Notes: generated by a model from the letters alone, not told the origin. 32,000 nt of DNA from Cylindrospermopsis raciborskii Cr2010 (GCF_003367075.2 NZ_CP065936.1:870001-902000); one strand, 5' to 3'; counted from the stretch's first letter, positions 4,777 to 24,019 are shown. Program-made: numbers and translations.

Positions 4777-6132
4777 ATGCAAATTGCCAGTGGTTCCAGC
4801 AATGATATGAAAAATCTACAGGGATTTGATTCCAACCATCCCCCCGACCCAAAATTAATTGATAGTTGTGTGCATTGTGGATTTTGTCTTTCCACATGTC
4901 CTAGTTATCGGGTGATAGGTAAAGAAATGGACTCACCCAGAGGTCGTATTTATTTAATGGATGCTATTAACGAAGGGGAAATTGCCCTAAATACTGCTAC
5001 AGTTCAACACTTTGACTCTTGCTTAGGTTGTCTTGCCTGTGTTTCTACTTGTCCTTCTGGAGTACAGTATGATAAGTTGATTTCCGCGACTCGTCACCAG
5101 GTAGAAAGGAATTATCAGCGCAGTTTTGCTGATAAATTAATCCGACAATTAATCTTCTCCCTTTTTCCTAATCCAGATATTTTAAGAATATTGCTTTTTC
5201 CCCTATTTCTCTATCAGAAGTTGGGAATTTCCCAATTGTTACGCGCTACCAGACTAATCCAGAAAATCTCTCCTAGGTTAGCTGCGATGGAATCAATTTT
5301 ACCGAAAATTACCATCCAGTCTTTTGGTAATAATTTACCAGATATCATTCCCGCTCAGGGTGCAAAACGCTATCGAGTAGGAATGATTTTAGGATGTGTA
5401 CAACGTCTGTTTTTCTCCCCCGTTAATGAAGCAACAGTGCGGGTTTTAACTGCTAATGGTTGTGAGGTAATCATTCCCAAGTCCCAGGGTTGTTGTGCTG
5501 CGCTTCCTGAACACCAAGGACAAACAGAACAAGCAAAAGCTTTAGCAAGACAAATGATTGACAGTTTTGCAGATAGCAATGTGGATTTTATCATTATTAA
5601 TGCTGCTGGTTGTGGTCATACCTTAAAGGAATATGGTCATATTTTAGCTGATGACCCAGAATACGCAGCAAAAGCTCAAATATTTGCAGCAAAGGTAAAA
5701 GATGCGCAGGAATTTTTAGTGTCGGTTGGGTTAACTGCTGAACTTTCATCCTTGAGCGACAAACCTTTAACTTTAGTTTATCAAGATGCTTGTCATTTAT
5801 TGCACGGTCAAAAAATTAGTCTTCAACCTCGTCAACTTCTAAAACAAATTCCAGGGGTAAATTTAAAAGAACCTTTAGATGCTGCTTTGTGTTGTGGAAG
5901 CGCAGGAGTTTATAATCTCCTACAACCAGAAATTGCTCAGGAGCTGGGTGAGCAAAAAGCACAGAATTTATTAAATACAGGTGCTGATGTTATTGCTTCT
6001 CCTAACCCAGGATGTAGTTTACAAATCAGTAAATATTTGGGGGATAGAAAAGCATCTGTCATGCACCCTATGGAATTATTGGACTATTCTATTCGCAATC
6101 AAAAATTGCCACTGGAGCAGATTATTTCATAA
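4777..6132 (+). CDS. glcF: Glycolate oxidase iron-sulfur subunit (2x[4Fe-4S] plus two CCG domains)
   Basis: Two ferredoxin motifs (CVHCGFCLSTCP, CLGCLACVSTCP) and cysteine-rich CCG-type repeats (CCAALPE, LCCGSAG, NPGC). Confidence 0.85.
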   Translation: MQIASGSSNDMKNLQGFDSNHPPDPKLIDSCVHCGFCLSTCPSYRVIGKEMDSPRGRIYLMDAINEGEIALNTATVQHFDSCLGCLACVSTCPSGVQYDKLISATRHQVERNYQRSFADKLIRQLIFSLFPNPDILRILLFPLFLYQKLGISQLLRATRLIQKISPRLAAMESILPKITIQSFGNNLPDIIPAQGAKRYRVGMILGCVQRLFFSPVNEATVRVLTANGCEVIIPKSQGCCAALPEHQGQTEQAKALARQMIDSFADSNVDFIIINAAGCGHTLKEYGHILADDPEYAAKAQIFAAKVKDAQEFLVSVGLTAELSSLSDKPLTLVYQDACHLLHGQKISLQPRQLLKQIPGVNLKEPLDAALCCGSAGVYNLLQPEIAQELGEQKAQNLLNTGADVIASPNPGCSLQISKYLGDRKASVMHPMELLDYSIRNQKLPLEQIIS

Positions 6133-7126
6133 AGAACTTGGATAAATATTTACCTACTTTGGGAAGTAGGGATTTCAGTACATTTGGTATAAAGAGCATA
6201 AGTAGGGAATTTTCTATCAATGAAACTGAATCATGGGAGAAAACATTGACGCTGATTACCAAGTTAGTGACTACCCAAACCAACCAGCTAATAACAGGTT
6301 CTATAAATTTATCCACAGATTTATTTCTTATCCTTACCAGTAGTTTTTTTAATTGACTGATAATTAGTAAACTCAATGTTCCCAAAACTAAAAATATTAT
6401 TATCCAACCCAAGGTTGAGATTAATATTGATAACCACAATGACATTCCGGAGGAGATTTTCCAGGTTATGACAGCTGCGGGAAATATAGCAGATACAAAC
6501 CAATACACTGAATTCAAATTACTTCTTAGACATTTGGTGACTTGTTCTGTTAGCCAATAATGGGAATTGACAATACCAGAAGCATCCCCATTGTTTATTA
6601 AGTCCTGGGATATTTTTTGGATAATATCACCGTCAAATAGTATGGTGCTTTGCATCATAATATTTAAATTATCAAAATGCTGATTTTCAGTTGATTGATA
6701 ATAGGAATTAAAGGTAAACCCAGATTGAAATTTAATGGTTTTATTGCGGTTCTGACTGGTGAGTATTTTCCAAGTTTTTACCAGGAAGAAATATATTAAA
6801 ACAGATAACTGGGGATGTTGATAAATATCCACACTCTTATCATAATTCTCATCCCTATCAACAAGGGAATCAAAAATGGAATAGTACCATAAATTCAATA
6901 ACAGTCCCTTGGGTATATCTAAAGATATACCCTGCAATTTTAACTGTGCAATTTTTTCTAAAATAGTTCTATTTAAATAAAAACTATATGCTCCTTCCTC
7001 AGCTTTTACCTCTAAGCAACAATTATCTTGGCCATTATTTTGGGGAAATTGCCAGGGAAATAAGAAACCATAATTCAAACTATAATTCAGGTCTGGTTTC
7101 TGGTAATTTTCTTGGAATATATTCAC
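6122..7126 (-). CDS. Hypothetical protein: about 200 aa soluble N-terminal part with a 'DGDI' module, then a C-terminal 3-4 helix membrane domain
   Basis: 334 aa ORF and third gene of a tight minus-strand operon. Hydrophobic segments include VYWFVSAIFPAAVITW, LWLSILISTLGWIIIFLVLGTLSLLII and VISWLVWVVTNLVISVNVF. I recognise no known family. Its 3' end overlaps glcF by 11 nt (convergent). Confidence 0.6.
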   Translation of the reverse strand: MNIFQENYQKPDLNYSLNYGFLFPWQFPQNNGQDNCCLEVKAEEGAYSFYLNRTILEKIAQLKLQGISLDIPKGLLLNLWYYSIFDSLVDRDENYDKSVDIYQHPQLSVLIYFFLVKTWKILTSQNRNKTIKFQSGFTFNSYYQSTENQHFDNLNIMMQSTILFDGDIIQKISQDLINNGDASGIVNSHYWLTEQVTKCLRSNLNSVYWFVSAIFPAAVITWKISSGMSLWLSILISTLGWIIIFLVLGTLSLLIISQLKKLLVRIRNKSVDKFIEPVISWLVWVVTNLVISVNVFSHDSVSLIENSLLMLFIPNVLKSLLPKVGKYLSKFFMK

Positions 7127-7160
7127 GCATCACCCACCCAAACTACTAACATATCTAAGT

Positions 7161-7958
7161 TCAAGAAGCAATACCTTTGATAAAATTAATCAGGAAGTCT
7201 ATTACCTCACGCCATTGTTTTTCTCCAGATACCACTCCATCATTATGAACCTTCATAATTAGATCTTTATCAGATTCCTTCAAACTGAATAAATCGCGGT
7301 GATAACGAGTAATAATATCTCCGTCTAATTGGATGATGGTTTGAGCATAGATGGTATCCACATTTTCACTTGTGACATCACCCCCATCCAGTGCTGCTTT
7401 CATTTCTGAAACCTTCCGCAAGGTCAATACAAACTTATCATCAGTCACTAGTTCGGCGATTTTCTGATAATTTTCCACCTGACTTTCCTGGTCAAAAGGT
7501 GAGGGTAAAACTATTTGGGATACTTTTGTACCATCGGAATTTAAGCGATTTTCATCTATATATTGCAGACGACTACGATATTCCTGCACCACCCGAGCTT
7601 TGGGTGATGGAGACTCTAATTCCTTGATTAAAAGCGTATAAATATATTCTCTTTCCAATTGCAAGAATATATTAATATAACGGTCTTCTAACTCGGACAC
7701 AATGTTCTTACTGGCAAAATAATTGGGTTGACTTATGGCATAAATATTATAGTATGATTGCCAGGGGTTGAATTTGGAACCGCTAATACTACTTACAACT
7801 ATTGTATTTACCTCTAAGCTTGTAATATCCCTAACTATTACGCCTACGGTATCAACAAATTTGCCCAGTAGGTCTTTAGCTCTCCCTGCTGTACCTTGAT
7901 TTGGCTGAGATTCCAAAGAATTTGAGTCTTTTGCTAACATGGGGGTTGCTCTCCGCAT
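7161..7958 (-). CDS. Hypothetical soluble protein, paralogous to both neighbours (N-terminal D..V..D[IV]..L.[IV].T.V module and C-terminal 'DGDI' module)
   Basis: 265 aa ORF, 19 nt downstream of the previous gene and 34 nt upstream of the next. I recognise no known family. Confidence 0.6.
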   Translation of the reverse strand: MRRATPMLAKDSNSLESQPNQGTAGRAKDLLGKFVDTVGVIVRDITSLEVNTIVVSSISGSKFNPWQSYYNIYAISQPNYFASKNIVSELEDRYINIFLQLEREYIYTLLIKELESPSPKARVVQEYRSRLQYIDENRLNSDGTKVSQIVLPSPFDQESQVENYQKIAELVTDDKFVLTLRKVSEMKAALDGGDVTSENVDTIYAQTIIQLDGDIITRYHRDLFSLKESDKDLIMKVHNDGVVSGEKQWREVIDFLINFIKGIAS

Positions 7959-7977
7959 TAAGTACCGTGGATAAATG

Positions 7978-8466
7978 CTAGGGAAGTTTTGCTAGTTGCG
8001 AACTTTGGCTATTTTGACTTTGTTTAACCATTGACATCAAAATCTCACCCAGTTTTTGCACGCTTTCTATGTTTTTTTGGATTATTTCCCGACCTTCCTG
8101 AACTTGGCTCAAATGAAATTCCCTCAGCTCTACATAGGGACCACTACCAATGAAGCTAGTACCTATTTCATTTCTAATGTCACCATCAACCAGGTTAATA
8201 CGGGTTACCATTTTGTTCTCTGGTTTGGCACTAGAAGCGTTGTTGTTATATGATGACTCATCAATAACAGAAGTTTCAATTTGTAACTCAATTACATCTG
8301 CAAGGACTGTCTTAACAATATCCATGACACTACTCAAGTTCACAGCATTGCTCTTAAAATCTAAATTGTTAAGCTGGCTTTGGAACTTATTTACTTTTGC
8401 TGACTCGACCTTTTCAATTTGCACTGTTTGGATTTCTAGGTTGGCGGAGAGGTTGGTTTCAGACAT
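7978..8466 (-). CDS. Hypothetical small soluble protein, first gene of the three-gene operon; shares both modules with the 265 aa protein
   Basis: 162 aa ORF. VMDIVKTVLADVIELQIETSVI aligns with FVDTVGVIVRDITSLEVNTIVV in the 265 aa protein, and TRINLVDGDIRNEIG aligns with TIIQLDGDIITRY. Confidence 0.6.
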   Translation of the reverse strand: MSETNLSANLEIQTVQIEKVESAKVNKFQSQLNNLDFKSNAVNLSSVMDIVKTVLADVIELQIETSVIDESSYNNNASSAKPENKMVTRINLVDGDIRNEIGTSFIGSGPYVELREFHLSQVQEGREIIQKNIESVQKLGEILMSMVKQSQNSQSSQLAKLP

Positions 8467-8604
8467 ACTTACTTTTAGGTACTATGTGAAAAAGTGTGGA
8501 TAGGACTGTATGGGTTTCCATTAGCACTCCACTAGGGCATTATTAACTACTTGAGATTTTTTTTCCATTGTTTTTAAAAAAACTTAACAAGAGTAAATTT
8601 TACT

Positions 8605-9390
8605 ATGCTATCAGCTCGCGAATTGATTATTGCTCCCTTGGTTTTTAGCCTGTCTATTCTCGCTGTGACTTCCAATCAGTACCTACGACTACAGGAATTG
8701 GTAACCGCTCCAGAAAATAGGTCAGGGGAGTCTGTGGAAAAAGATGACCAGAAAAATGCTTTACGTCTTAAATTGCTTGATAACATGCCCAGTTTTGGTT
8801 ATAACAATATACTCTCTAAATGGGTGTATATCGAGTTTTTACAATACTTTGGGGATGACCAGCAAAGACAGAGGACTGGTTATGGTCTAAGTCCGGAGTT
8901 TTTAAAAATCGTTCTCAAACATGATCCAAGATTCCTTGATGCTTATTTAAGTCTTTCTGTTAGCACCTCTTTATATGCTGGGATGCCTAAAACTGCTGTT
9001 AATCTAATGACGACTAATTTACAATTGCTCTCCCCCAAATTACCGCCAAAGTCCTATTATGTGTGGAGTTATAAGGGTATTGATGAGTTATTATTTTTAG
9101 GTGATCATCAAGCAGCTCGTCAGTCTTTTATAAAAGCTGCTACTTGGGCGCGGGAATATGATGATCCAGAGGCGCAAAAAGTGGTTTTCTTCTCTGAAAA
9201 AACTGCTAATTTCCTTTTGAGGAATCCTGACAGTAAGTTTGCTCGTATTGCCACCTGGAGCATGGTTTTACAAAATAATATGGATGGTAAAACTCGACAA
9301 ATTGCTATTGGCGAAATTGAAAATTTAGGTGGTAAGGTAGTTGTTAATAACTTGGGTTTACCCATTGTTATTTTTCCTGAAAGGGACTGA
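8605..9390 (+). CDS. Hypothetical protein with an N-terminal signal anchor or signal peptide
   Basis: 261 aa ORF transcribed divergently from the three-gene operon. Hydrophobic N-terminus LIIAPLVFSLSILAVTS. No motif recognised. Confidence 0.55.
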   Translation: MLSARELIIAPLVFSLSILAVTSNQYLRLQELVTAPENRSGESVEKDDQKNALRLKLLDNMPSFGYNNILSKWVYIEFLQYFGDDQQRQRTGYGLSPEFLKIVLKHDPRFLDAYLSLSVSTSLYAGMPKTAVNLMTTNLQLLSPKLPPKSYYVWSYKGIDELLFLGDHQAARQSFIKAATWAREYDDPEAQKVVFFSEKTANFLLRNPDSKFARIATWSMVLQNNMDGKTRQIAIGEIENLGGKVVVNNLGLPIVIFPERD

Positions 9391-12183: not shown

Positions 12184-13635
12184 TTAGGTCGGTGACACTA
12201 GATTTAATTGAGTAATAATTTCCCAGGGGTCTGCTACAAAAACAATAGTACCATCGGAGTCAATGGTAACTCCTGCAAGACCAGTGGGTTTGGGTAAAAT
12301 TCCCGGGAATTGTTTAACAAAGATTTCCCTTTCACCCAACACCTGGTCAACCTGGAGAGCGACTACAATATCACTACTACCGGGGTGAAGAATAACTACA
12401 GAAGTGTTTTGACCATTGTCCGTTGAGGGAGTATTAAAAATTTGACGATGAAATCCTAATACTTCAGAGAGAGTGCGTAAAGGCAAAATCCGTTCTCCCC
12501 AGCGGATAAATGGTTTACCTTTAGCATCCCTGGCCAGGTCTTTCACCAATATATCCATGGTTTCCATCACATATTCCTGATGGAAAGCAATTGTGTAGTT
12601 ATGGAAAACACAACATATAGCTCCACAAGCAGTCAGACCACTTAAACTAATAGGTAACTTGATAGTCAAAGTTCTAGAGGAATCAGTGCTAATAGTGCCA
12701 TAAACTTGGTGAAGAATGGGTAGCAAATTTTGGATTAGCCTATGGTAGTTAATTCCCAGAGTATTATTAGCTACAGATATAAAAGTTATAGATAGGAGAT
12801 TATATTTACCCTTAACAGAAACCTGGATAGTGATTTTTCCTGCAGGTGATTTGCCAGAAGCAATGCGAACTGAAGGAGTTTTAGTTTCCTGGGACATAGC
12901 ATGATGGAGTATATAAATCAGACAATCAGTCAGGTGGGGTAAAATTAGCTTATCCACAAGAGTTTCTTGTCCTTGTATAACCAAGTCTACCTTTTTGCCA
13001 TACTTCACTCCATCAATAGTCACCTGATTACGTAATCGTTCACTAGCTCGAGCAAAAGGGATCCGTTGTATGCTGACACAACTATCTCGTAATTTTTCCG
13101 TGACTTGATCACACTGCTCACTTAAAGTTTGAATTTCCTCTTGAACAAAATCAATATCTACTGCGGACTCCACCATGGTGGAAGTACATTCTATAATTTC
13201 TTGGTGCAGGGAATAAAAAGGACTAGATGGGTCATTTAACTCTTGTATTCTGATACCGATCTGAGAAAGCTGTTGAATTTGAGAGAGCAGATGGTCTAAA
13301 GATTGGCACAGGTACTGGTGATTATGTGCTAGGACATGGTGACTGGTCAGCAAGTCCCCCACCAAACTTGCCATTTGATTTAAATGATCAAAAGAAATAT
13401 TGACACCCTCCTTACCCGCAAGAGACGAGGGCTCTGGTATTTTGGCAACTTGGTATTTTCTCTCTGTGGGAGTAGGACCAGCTCCCTTTTCCCTGACTAT
13501 TTGTGATGAGACTTGTTTAGATCCTGCCAATAAGCTATCTTCCAACTCCTTAATCAAATCTTCCAAATTCTCATCTACAGGTTTTTTTTCAGGTTTGTTT
13601 CCCGTATCTTCCCAAAAACTATTAGCATCATGCAT
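12184..13635 (-). CDS. CheA-like protein without an Hpt domain and with a degenerate ATPase domain (P3 dimerisation - decayed P4 - P5/CheW-like)
   Basis: It aligns by eye to the CheA P3-P5 region (GKKVDLVIQGQETLVDKLILPHLTDCL..., GKSPAGKITIQV..., C-terminal CheW-like VVALQVDQVLGEREIFVK). However, the N-box reads YILHHAMSQETK, the G1 box reads SVANN, and the F/G2 lid region is absent. Confidence 0.8.
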   Translation of the reverse strand: MHDANSFWEDTGNKPEKKPVDENLEDLIKELEDSLLAGSKQVSSQIVREKGAGPTPTERKYQVAKIPEPSSLAGKEGVNISFDHLNQMASLVGDLLTSHHVLAHNHQYLCQSLDHLLSQIQQLSQIGIRIQELNDPSSPFYSLHQEIIECTSTMVESAVDIDFVQEEIQTLSEQCDQVTEKLRDSCVSIQRIPFARASERLRNQVTIDGVKYGKKVDLVIQGQETLVDKLILPHLTDCLIYILHHAMSQETKTPSVRIASGKSPAGKITIQVSVKGKYNLLSITFISVANNTLGINYHRLIQNLLPILHQVYGTISTDSSRTLTIKLPISLSGLTACGAICCVFHNYTIAFHQEYVMETMDILVKDLARDAKGKPFIRWGERILPLRTLSEVLGFHRQIFNTPSTDNGQNTSVVILHPGSSDIVVALQVDQVLGEREIFVKQFPGILPKPTGLAGVTIDSDGTIVFVADPWEIITQLNLVSPT

Positions 13636-13670
13636 ACTTTTTGTTTTTACCTAGGTTTAAATAATGGTAT

Positions 13671-15122
13671 TTAGGGGGAGTTAAGAGTTGCTTTCTCAAT
13701 TGAGGAGTCTATATCAGCTATTATAGGAGTAATATCTTCCAGAGATTGCCTAGCTTGTTGTGCAAGTTTCGTGCTATTGATAACTCGTTGTTTACTCCCT
13801 TCCATAGTGAGTAGGATATGGTTAGTCTCCTTATCAATGTTTCCAAACATGTCTTGAATCTGCTTAATAGATTTAGCTGTCTTATCTGCTAGTTGGGATA
13901 TTTCATTGGCCATAATTGCCAGTCCTCTTCCTCCTACGCCAGATTTTGTTGCTTCAATACTGACATTTAATGTTAACAAATTAGTACGAGAGGCTAATTG
14001 GGATGCTAAGGTAGCCAAGGAATTAATTTCTTGACAAGACTCGACCAAGTATTTTAGTTGAGGTTCGGTTTTTGTTAGGGTTTCTCCAACTACCAAAATT
14101 TCCGCCACCATGTTTTCCAGAGCTTCACTAACTTGACTATTAATGTCATTAACGCGATGAACCGAGGTTTGAGCTGCTTTACCTATTTTCCTGACTTCCT
14201 CTAGGGATTGGGTCATAGTTACTACGGAGTTAAGAGTGACTGCTAACTCTTTGGCTTGGCCGGAGTTTTGTTCCTGAAAAGCACGTCGAACAGATTGATG
14301 TGCCAGACCACCCATGGAAGCAGCAGTGATTCCACCTATAATTCCAGCACCTAGCGGTACTCCCCAATTGGCATTTCTCATCCATTCACGTTGGGATACC
14401 CATGAGCTGGTTCCAAAGCCAACTACAGCAGCTGTTAGGGCTGAGGTAAAACCTACTACTAGTGCGGTAGACCACTGCTGTTTTTTTAAAACAGCATTTA
14501 AGGAAGAATTTTGTCGAACGGGAACATTCTCTGGTAATGGATCTTGGGTACTTACGGATTTATCTTCTAGTAACCTTTGGTTATGGTTACCAGCTAATTC
14601 ATCATGGGTATCTATGTTTTCATCCATTTCTACCGGTTCCCAAGATGAAATACTTTTTAAATCATCAAATTCATCGAAATTAACCAGGAATTCAATTTTG
14701 TCCATATCGTTATAACTATACTTTTTATCTGATTCCAAAAGGTGTGATGGATCATTTTCTTCTATATCGGAAAACAGTTGTTCCACACTACTGGGATCTC
14801 CAATGAAAGCACCATCAGAACCACTCTTTAAAGCAGAGCTGTCAGTGACTAGCTCCTGTTCAATCACTTGCAATTTTTGACGAGCTGAACCTAGTATTTC
14901 TTGATTATTTGTTAAACCCAGTACCCGATCATATTCCGCTTTGGCAACCTTAAATTTTCCTAGAGCATAGTATATATTACCCCGCAACAGGTGGGAATTA
15001 GGGTCTTCTCCTAAAATGCTGACTACTTGGTCTATTAGAGTAGCAGCACTTTGATAATCACCTCTTATGTAAGCTGTTAATGCCTGCTGATATTTGGAAT
15101 TTGGCTCATCTGTACTTATCAT
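13671..15122 (-). CDS. Methyl-accepting chemotaxis protein with an N-terminal TPR domain, acidic linker, two closely spaced TM helices and a short signalling domain
   Basis: Signalling hairpin TNLLTLNVSIEATKSGVGGRGLAIMANEISQLADKT. TPR-like N-terminus (YQQALTAYIRGDYQSAA..., GNIYYALGKFKVAKAEYDRVL). The TM helices WSTALVVGFTSALTAAVVGF and VPLGAGIIGGITAASMGGLA are separated by only about 17 residues. Confidence 0.85.
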   Translation of the reverse strand: MISTDEPNSKYQQALTAYIRGDYQSAATLIDQVVSILGEDPNSHLLRGNIYYALGKFKVAKAEYDRVLGLTNNQEILGSARQKLQVIEQELVTDSSALKSGSDGAFIGDPSSVEQLFSDIEENDPSHLLESDKKYSYNDMDKIEFLVNFDEFDDLKSISSWEPVEMDENIDTHDELAGNHNQRLLEDKSVSTQDPLPENVPVRQNSSLNAVLKKQQWSTALVVGFTSALTAAVVGFGTSSWVSQREWMRNANWGVPLGAGIIGGITAASMGGLAHQSVRRAFQEQNSGQAKELAVTLNSVVTMTQSLEEVRKIGKAAQTSVHRVNDINSQVSEALENMVAEILVVGETLTKTEPQLKYLVESCQEINSLATLASQLASRTNLLTLNVSIEATKSGVGGRGLAIMANEISQLADKTAKSIKQIQDMFGNIDKETNHILLTMEGSKQRVINSTKLAQQARQSLEDITPIIADIDSSIEKATLNSP

Positions 15123-15679
15123 TTCTCCTCCTGATTAAATTTGACCATACTTGCCCATTTATCGCTTTGCAGAATTATTTTTTGATTAATCAGTTTTACG
15201 GACTTGTTATTTTCACTATCTAGCCATTCCCCGTGAACAAAAGGAACTGTGTCATCTGGTACATCGGTTGGAGCTACTACAGATTCCATATCTAACCAAA
15301 ACGTAGCACATATTTGGTCTACTGCTAAACCAATTATGGTGTCTTCATACTCAGTCGTAATAACTGATACTTGTGATCTACGTTCTAGATTTAAAGGTAT
15401 CATTTCTCCCATAAACTTTCCTAAGTCTACTACCCAAATTAACCGACTTCGCCAATTGACTACTCCTAAAACCAATGGGGAGGTGTTAGGAATGGGTATG
15501 ATTTGATTGGGAGTAACTTCTATTACCTCTTTGATGCTAATTAAGGGTAGGGCAAATTCCTCGGGTGAGGACAAATAAAACCTCAGATACAACTCGTCTT
15601 TTAAAGACGGGGATTGATTGAGACCTTTAGTATCAGTATTTTCTGGTAATTTGGCGTGTCGGTTTTGGCGAGTGATCAT
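15119..15679 (-). CDS. cheW: CheW-like coupling protein
   Basis: 186 aa with a CheW domain (FALPLISIKEVIEV, LVLGVVNWRSRLIWVVDLGKFMG). Its TGA overlaps the ATG of the MCP gene (ATGA at 15119-15122), which suggests translational coupling. Confidence 0.85.
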   Translation of the reverse strand: MITRQNRHAKLPENTDTKGLNQSPSLKDELYLRFYLSSPEEFALPLISIKEVIEVTPNQIIPIPNTSPLVLGVVNWRSRLIWVVDLGKFMGEMIPLNLERRSQVSVITTEYEDTIIGLAVDQICATFWLDMESVVAPTDVPDDTVPFVHGEWLDSENNKSVKLINQKIILQSDKWASMVKFNQEEK

Positions 15680-23916: not shown

Positions 23917-23937
23917 TAGATACTAATGCGGATGTGG

Positions 23938-24019
23938 CGGAATTGGCAGACGCGCTAGATTTAGGTTCTAGTTCCGACAGGAGTGAAGGTTCAAGTCCTT
24001 TCATCCGCATTATATAAAC
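23938..24019 (+). tRNA. tRNA-Leu, anticodon UAG (class II, long variable arm), no encoded CCA
   Basis: Folded by hand. Acceptor GCGGATG/CATCCGC; D arm GCG-GAATTGGCAGA-CGC; anticodon stem CTAGA/TCTAG with loop TTTAGGT; 13-nt variable arm; T arm GAAGG-TTCAAGT-CCTTT; discriminator A. Confidence 0.9.

Follow-up and report, generated by a model that had tools for sequence, protein, structure and literature searches.

A three-gene cluster with a shared sequence module and a predicted membrane subunit in filamentous cyanobacteria

The known filament genes of cyanobacteria are a handful, namely fraC/D/E, sepJ, cyDiv, hetR, patU3 and hetZ, and the genome-reduced Raphidiopsis/Cylindrospermopsis lineage has been used for defining minimal multicellularity gene sets. 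Among bacterial adaptors, the acidic, repetitive MamJ of magnetosomes links organelle or membrane to a scaffold and has MamK as its filament partner. Here we analyse a 32,000-nucleotide (nt) stretch of Cylindrospermopsis raciborskii Cr2010 (GCF_003367075.2 NZ_CP065936.1:870001-902000; hereafter the window, to which coordinates refer unless another locus is named) and describe a cluster of three adjacent minus-strand genes, A, B and C, whose products each contain a short module built around a Gly-Asp pair and a His residue, the GD…H module. Judged by the comparisons below, A-B-C is a genuine, widely conserved and undescribed system, with a function that we can only infer.

Sets of genes found only in filamentous cyanobacteria offer the nearest described context. 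Stucken et al. 2010 (PMC2821919, Table 4) compiled such genes, including those of strains D9 and CS-505 and with FraD (alr2393) among them. A, B and C resemble the members of these sets in being conserved hypothetical proteins, some of them membrane proteins, of Raphidiopsis/Cylindrospermopsis and other filamentous cyanobacteria, and could not be mapped to any gene in that list. The filament protein CyDiv (all2320; PMC4748335), which has 197 amino acids (aa), a coiled coil and one C-terminal transmembrane helix, is a different protein with no resemblance to A, B or C. Locus tags guessed by synteny in Anabaena PCC 7120 were likewise discarded, as alr3646-49 are devBCA-like and alr4781 is GlsC; no literature was found on the further guessed tags alr3575-77, alr4939-41 and all1256-58. 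A literature search found no paper on the A-B-C system or the A domain.

The A-B-C cluster and its distribution

An initial annotation had placed three minus-strand open reading frames (ORFs) of 162, 265 and 334 aa in the window, separated by 19 and 34 nt, and an ORF check of the window returned the same coordinates, lengths and gaps. Gene A (7978-8466, minus strand; 162 aa) encodes the smallest protein of the trio, predicted to be soluble and to consist of an N-terminal module (N-module), the GD…H module and a long C-terminal helix. Gene B (7161-7958, minus strand; 265 aa as listed) encodes a second predicted soluble protein, in which a helical insert of ~140 aa separates the N-module from the GD…H module and a GEKQW helix follows the latter. 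Gene C (6122-7126, minus strand; 334 aa) begins with GTG; its product joins a predicted cytoplasmic N-terminal domain, in which the GD…H module lies, to a hydrophobic C-terminal one. The gaps of 19 nt (A-B) and 34 nt (B-C) take B from ATG 7958. Alignments suggest that the true start of B is Met7 (ATG 7940), because the alignments with a 95%-identical orthologue and with every one from Nostoc begin at that residue, and B would then probably have 259 aa and an A-B gap of 37 nt. A promoter/terminator scan, itself no better than chance, returned no terminator-like sites between the three genes; together with gene junctions whose gaps or overlaps measure 1-34 nt across genomes, this agrees with the operon-like packing originally described.

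The trio and its gene order are conserved well beyond this genome, as the initial annotation had asked of other cyanobacteria. We examined 83 loci, namely 80 Nostocales genome loci retrieved by the B profile plus the window, locus L001 and Spirulina major (L002), and found A, B and C on one strand in A-B-C order in 81 of them. The two exceptions, Nostoc sp. C117 (a complete genome; L036:5664-5967) and Nostoc sp. CCY 9925 (L076), are related strains without A at the locus, where a 261-aa gene is followed by B after ~300 nt. Spirulina major carries A, a 485-aa A-like protein, B and C. Outside Nostocales, in a set of loci that includes metagenome contigs, L084 and L098 have A-B-C, and L099, L100 and L101 have the order A-A'-B-C, with an additional A-like gene that we call A'. 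Junctions in Nostoc, Spirulina and L084 are gaps or overlaps of 1-14 nt. The flanks vary: the window has glcF and ftsH, Nostoc has dnaE-N and L084 has mutS, Spirulina has genes for an EVE-domain protein and for HHH_3/ArsA-type ATPases, and in L099-L101 the neighbours encode subtilases, sulfatases or deacetylases. Because flanking genes differ while A-B-C stays together, the cluster behaves as a self-contained unit; no recurrent functional neighbour was found among the flanks of five diverse metagenome loci. At the protein level the window is 94% identical to Raphidiopsis brookii D9 (L004) and 99% identical to metagenome contig Ga0172372_10001908 (L086). By all these comparisons A-B-C is a widespread cyanobacterial cluster and not a Raphidiopsis oddity.

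All credibly named hosts are filamentous. Within Nostocales they include Raphidiopsis, Sphaerospermopsis, Anabaena, Nostoc, Scytonema, Komarekiella and others, and outside this order Spirulina, Symploca, Funiculus/Trichocoleus, Coleofasciculaceae and Roseofilum. Restriction of the cluster to filamentous taxa, read from the named hosts, is suggestive only. Three records bear other names, 'Chroococcales cyanobacterium' (L059), 'uncultured Acetobacteraceae bacterium' (L070) and 'Leptolyngbyaceae cyanobacterium' (L009), and in each the cluster and its flanks resemble those of Nostoc; they are probably mis-binned contigs of metagenome-assembled genomes.

Homologues are numerous and almost entirely unnamed. 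A word-indexed search retrieved 19 homologues of A, and an exhaustive HMMER search of 1.84 billion cluster representatives retrieved 667 at expectation value (E) <=1e-3 and 319 at E<=1e-10, so that the A domain occurs in at least 667 clusters at 50% identity. B has 193 homologues in the database, nearly all named 'hypothetical protein', the exceptions being four entries that bear the stray names CheZ or J domain-containing protein, and the cluster members whose names were looked up are 'hypothetical protein' only. For C the word-indexed search returned just 4 relatives, and phmmer matched it to ORFs downstream of B in Nostoc loci at E ~1e-40; on these comparisons C is the fastest-evolving of the three. 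Like the initial annotation, which recognized no known family in any of the proteins, we found no significant match to a described one. Pfam gave no meaningful match for A, B, C or any of 55 alignment members (17, 20 and 18 scanned). The best NCBIfam 20.0 match (E=0.0083) scored 16 bits against a cut-off of 110, below the level for membership. PADLOC-DB 2.0 returned nothing for B or C and, for A, a lone marginal and partial match (E 0.0013, 16 bits) to a Type I specificity subunit, and PHROGs v4 returned best E values of 0.035-0.061, to function-unknown families, with no stretch passing on its own. Profile searches of PDB sequences with the family alignments of A, B and C (alignments A1, A2 and A3) reached best E values of 0.05-0.1, none below 0.05, and Foldseek gave no match at E<=0.001 for the A model against PDB and BFVD or for the B model against PDB. 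A SNARE/synaptobrevin-like tail-anchored candidate (PF00957) was rejected, since its match covered only the C-terminal helix of A and its 10 bits (E=0.75) fell short of the cut-off of 26.4.

A trio of orphans in which a small soluble protein precedes a membrane protein, set in neighbourhoods that differ between cyanobacterial orders and with GC content down to 0.326 across 6001-7000 (gene C) versus ~0.40 for the window, could also be a mobile defence, toxin-antitoxin or prophage-derived cassette. We regard this as scarcely plausible. Synteny of the locus, next to ftsH and pabC, extends over 80 Nostocales genomes, and A, B and C are all under purifying selection, with ratios of non-synonymous to synonymous substitution (dN/dS) against R. 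brookii D9 of 0.138, 0.140 and 0.156, respectively (~0.14). The PADLOC match of A is sub-threshold and no PHROG match was obtained; Rfam and repeat scans of the region returned nothing relevant, and the cluster borders carry no integrase, repeats or tRNA. The low GC content fits a membrane protein rich in Phe, Ile, Leu, Asn and Lys.

Shared modules and their predicted fold

The peptides first quoted as a common 'DGDI' module are present in all three proteins. The GD…H module occupies residues 85-121 of A (8104-8214, minus strand; KMVTRINLVDGDIRNEIGTSFIGSGPYVELREFHLSQ), residues 203-240 of B (7239-7352, minus strand; IYAQTIIQLDGDIITRYHRDLFSLKESDKDLIMKVHND, quoted in the initial annotation as IYAQTIIQLDGDIITRYHRDLF...VHND) and residues 156-192 of C (6551-6661, minus strand; IMMQSTILFDGDIIQKISQDLINNGDASGIVNSHYWL). 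A and B also have an N-module, at residues 44-67 of A (8266-8337, minus strand; a helix plus a strand, …ADVIELQIETSV) and residues 31-55 of B (7794-7868, minus strand; LGKFVDTVGVIVRDITSLEVNTIVV). DGDI is the sole four-residue string common to A, B and C, and three shuffled sequences share any four-residue string in 166 of 20,000 cases (0.8%).

These modules fall on the best-conserved columns of each family. Alignment A1 has 23 invariant columns, and the invariant or near-invariant residues of A include E60, L61 and T65, then T88, N91, L92, D94 and G95, and H118; its conserved stretch reads …ELEITTWV… then T-R-I-N-L-V-D-G-D-I-x-N-E-V-G-S-Q-F…G-P-Y-x-E-L-R-E-F-H-L. Alignment A2 has 75 invariant columns, DGDI (D212, G213, D214, I215) included, with H238 conserved and the stretch D-I-T-A-L-E-V-N-T-M-V-V… then A-Q-T-V-M-Q-L-D-G-D-I-I-T-R-Y-H…H-N-E-G-V-V-x-G-E-K-Q-W. 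In alignment A3, G166 and D167 of C are invariant and H189, W191 and L192 near-invariant, within Q-S-x-I-L-F-x-G-D-I-x-H-K-I…I-V-S-A-H-Y-W-L. Distant Spirulina copies keep the motif, which in Spirulina C reads SIDGDIIHQV…AHYWL. Common to all three families are the Gly-Asp pair and the His, spaced 23-25 residues apart. To judge from these alignments, the GD…H modules, and the N-modules of A and B, are the most conserved parts of their families and not low-complexity chance.

Profile comparison of the module sub-alignments with hhalign links the families pairwise, to differing degrees. B and C matched at E=2.4e-4 over 34 columns, A and C at E=1.7e-3 over 27, among them the His column, and the N-modules of A and B at E=1.6e-3. 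Against a null of 120 column-shuffled versions of the target profile, the B-C module score was 23.2 versus 10.1±2.2 and the A-C score 19.2 versus 9.6±2.1; none of the 120 shuffles reached either score, and the two scores lie 4.6-5.9 standard deviations (SD) above their nulls. The A-B N-module score of 17.1 versus 9.0±2.2 was reached by 2 of 120 shuffles and is marginal. Broader full-length profiles gave E=5.4e-4 for B-C (HH-suite probability 30%), 0.01 for A-C and 0.043 for A-B. Common ancestry of the GD…H module in A, B and C is thus likely on the profile evidence, and not proven.

An AlphaFold2 (AF2) model of A, built from 17 sequences, has a predicted local distance difference test (pLDDT) score of 68 overall and ~80-86 for residues 85-150. 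It contains a helix at 44-57, a strand at 60-67 (ELQIETSV), a variable loop, a strand at 85-91 (MVTRINL), the DGD turn, a strand at 97-101 and a helix at 110-159, so that the conserved motifs lie in a three-stranded sheet packed on helices. In this model the N-module and the GD…H module would be two halves of a single small sheet-plus-helix domain, and the ~140-aa insert of B would fall in a loop that is already variable in A.

The nearest resemblance of this predicted fold, at fold level only, would be to YbaB/EbfC (PF02575; 1pug, 1j8b, 1ybx). Like A, YbaB is a small protein, and the model predicts for A the YbaB order of a helix, three antiparallel strands and a long helix; 1pug, 1j8b and 1ybx recur in the top Foldseek matches of A, where YbaB-family structures are the only recurring family. 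On this ground the module could be a YbaB/EbfC-like 'tweezer' fold in a system that tethers or organizes DNA (the nucleoid) at the membrane. The Foldseek matches are non-significant, however (E 0.38-1.8, probability <=0.23, query template-modelling score <=0.27), and the Pfam model YbaB_DNA_bd matched neither A, B and C nor any of the 17, 20 and 18 family members at E<=1. Family membership was rejected when the profiles of the three families, compared by hhalign with the aligned sequences of 1pug, 1j8b, 5yrx, 1ybx and 3f42, gave a probability of <=0.3% and E >=0.22. Unlike YbaB, A has a long variable loop between strands 1 and 2, B has the ~140-aa insert, C is predicted to be membrane-anchored and A' has a polyanionic tail, and no basic DNA-binding surface is evident; the tail, at a charge of -25 per 100 aa, itself speaks against DNA binding. 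We consider such a YbaB-like fold with a DNA-tethering role very unlikely.

A possible membrane-anchored scaffold

The membrane-embedded C terminus first assigned to C is borne out by Kyte-Doolittle hydropathy. Its hydrophobic C-terminal domain (6161-6508, minus strand; residues 207-322) contains 2 to 4 predicted transmembrane helices, with strong segments at ~226-264 and ~274-296 and weaker ones at ~207-224 and ~303-322; the 19-residue mean reaches 2.55 at 233-255 and 1.98 at 286-288. The helix of the GD…H module leads almost directly into these segments, and Nostocales C orthologues are hydrophobic in the corresponding region. By the same measure A and B have no hydrophobic segments, and neither has a signal peptide-like N terminus.

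Sequences outside Nostocales indicate that the cluster usually has A' as a fourth gene, between A and B (L002:6436-7893; L099:5452-6807; L100:5329-7593; L101:5510-7228); A' is not in the window's cluster. The A' protein consists of an A-like N-terminal domain and a tail of 150-1300 aa that is disordered, rich in Pro and strongly acidic. Tails of at least 150 aa occur in 117 of the 150 best A-domain representatives, and the tailed proteins have a total length of 250-1445 aa with the A domain at residues ~8-120. The tails contain 15.8% Glu and 12.1% Asp (28% together), 10.2% Pro and 9.9% Ser, and their median net charge is -24.7 per 100 residues. Positions neighbouring Trp are Asp or Glu in 58% of cases, DPF-like motifs recur, a KRVPPPPPPPSRFPN motif is often terminal and some tails include an Ala/Gly/Val-rich hydrophobic stretch. 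Ten long A' proteins gave no Pfam domains. In joining what appears to be a small folded anchoring domain to a very long acidic, Pro/Ala/Ser-rich disordered region, A' would by analogy resemble MamJ-type adaptors. Unlike MamJ, A' has no known MamK-like filament partner and is absent from the window's cluster, and the two proteins have no sequence relationship.

We propose, tentatively, that A, B and C may be co-transcribed subunits of a membrane-anchored, cytoplasm-facing hetero-oligomeric scaffold built from diverged paralogues, a possibility to which we give real weight while stopping short of an even chance. What the sequences show directly is the order of the genes and its conservation, the lack of known relatives, the motifs held in common, the hydrophobic domain of C and the tails of A'; co-transcription, physical association, the membrane concerned and the scaffolding role are all matters that we infer. 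Each subunit would bear a small assembly module consisting of a strand, the Gly-Asp turn, a second strand and a helix that starts just before the conserved His, and A and B would additionally bear a helix-strand element upstream of it. In C the module helix would continue straight into the 2 to 4 transmembrane helices and so fix the assembly to the membrane, and A and B could dock onto C and onto each other through these shared modules, with strands extending sheets and helices packing into bundles. The role would be structural or scaffolding and not catalytic, tethering something at the cytoplasmic face of the membrane, which in most lineages would be the polyanionic tail. A tethering module at the membrane fits the finding that in most non-Nostocales A' adds only a disordered polyanionic tail of 150-1300 aa.

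Several observations weigh against this proposal. Family hidden Markov models (HMMs) of A, B and C gave no cross-family matches at E<=1, and HH-suite probabilities run from 1 to 44%, with paralogy resting on short modules; the module regions compared were picked by eye, which inflates the module statistics, and the A-B comparison of the DGDI module (14.5 versus 10.6±2.7, reached by 12 of 120 shuffles) is not significant. The AF2 model of B is unreliable (pLDDT 59.5) and renders the motif regions as helices at low confidence. C proteins from outside Nostocales are less hydrophobic, and Spirulina C is without any segment >=1.4. In Nostoc C117 and CCY 9925, where A is missing at the locus, it is not indispensable, being dispensable or relocated there. 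Finally, the polar residues under strict conservation (D, N, E, H and R) might just as well belong to a catalytic site or to one for a ligand or metal.

The first of these points bear on a rival account, in which the operon is conserved, its products are unrelated orphans that need not form one complex, and the likeness of the DGDI and N-modules is convergence or chance. Pairwise BLASTP is compatible with it, being non-significant for A-B and A-C and reaching 0.009 for B-C, as are the missing HMM cross-matches, the HH-suite values, an A-B DGDI score inside its null and the losability of A. This account would nevertheless have to explain why a string so rarely shared by three shuffled sequences coincides in all three families with the columns of highest conservation, at the same distance from Gly to His, why the B-C and A-C modules score so far above their nulls and why the motif is kept in distant Spirulina copies, and we judge it unlikely. 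The original description of the proteins as mutually paralogous is partly supported: the B-C and A-C modules stand well above null and the A-B N-module is marginal, the A-B DGDI module is not significant and the family HMMs do not match one another.

The conserved polar residues bear on a different account, in which Gly-Asp…His, with Asn, Glu and Arg, forms a metal- or ligand-binding or catalytic site and the products are membrane-associated enzymes, pseudoenzymes or sensors instead of a passive scaffold. Polar and charged residues dominate the invariant columns, both in A (E60, T65, T88, N91, D94, N99, E113, H118, Q121, R126, N132 and E134) and in B (D212, D214, R218, H220, H238, E246, K247 and Q248), and Gly-Asp plus His are the sole residues common to the three families. 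Set against this, searches of Pfam, NCBIfam and PDB found no similarity to an enzyme family, the first Asp of DGD becomes H, Y or N in C orthologues and the second N, T or E in some A orthologues, and the family's only elaboration is a disordered tail and no catalytic domain. An active or binding site of this kind appears improbable.

Extended to all lineages, the scaffold proposal becomes that A-(A')-B-C is an undescribed membrane-anchored cytoplasmic scaffold across filamentous multicellular cyanobacteria, made of paralogous helix-sheet-helix modules and in most lineages displaying a huge polyanionic tail rich in Trp/Phe-acidic motifs; in this full form we hold it to be doubtful. If true, it would represent a new kind of bacterial cell-organizing element that might, for example, organize septa or cell poles, space membranes or tether organelles, and the very few genes so far connected with the filamentous body plan would gain new members. 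Should it be a membrane scaffold linked to the organization of filaments, the cluster would also supply new, genetically tractable candidates for what builds the cyanobacterial filament; relatives of the laboratory models among Nostoc and Anabaena strains have orthologues. Even with a mundane function, the cluster would contribute a testable assembly module and add three or four new families of proteins.

Promoter region and genomic surroundings

Gene A and a divergent 261-aa orphan gene are separated by an intergenic region of 138 nt (8467-8604), the presumed promoter region of A-B-C. The scan returned a single, weak sigma-70-like match in this interval (minus strand, 8567-8539; 9/12), no better than chance. 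Nostoc loci have a conserved inverted repeat, TTACTTA-N7-TAAGTAA, ~75-100 nt 5' of the A start and followed by a TAnAAT box (for example at L001 ~5290-5315; alignment A4 columns ~143-166), which could be a candidate regulator-binding site for the operon. In the window the corresponding place is occupied by another AT-rich palindrome of different sequence, TTGTT…AACAA.

The 261-aa orphan (8605-9390, plus strand) has a hydrophobic N terminus and no Pfam or PHROG match. It adjoins A in 83 of the fetched loci, even where pabC and ftsH lie on the other side (L057, L066), is absent from R. brookii D9 (L004) and is not adjacent to A outside Nostocales; it may be functionally linked to the A-B-C cluster.

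As the initial annotation had noted, the neighbours include housekeeping genes. On the side that we call upstream lie gatB, argJ, a glcE-like gene and glcF, whose GlcF-like product has CCG and Fer4 domains; this gene (4777-6132, plus strand) converges with C, and their 3' ends overlap by 11 nt (6122-6132). On the side that we call downstream, the 261-aa orphan is followed by a class IV aminotransferase gene, ftsH and a cluster of CheW and methyl-accepting chemotaxis protein (MCP) genes. This chemotaxis-like set (12184-15679, minus strand) encodes a 483-aa CheW-domain protein, a 483-aa protein with tetratricopeptide repeats and an MCP-signalling domain, and a 186-aa CheW, after which comes a 151-aa ORF with a TilS substrate-binding domain. 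A tRNA gene lies farther along the window, at 23928-24009.

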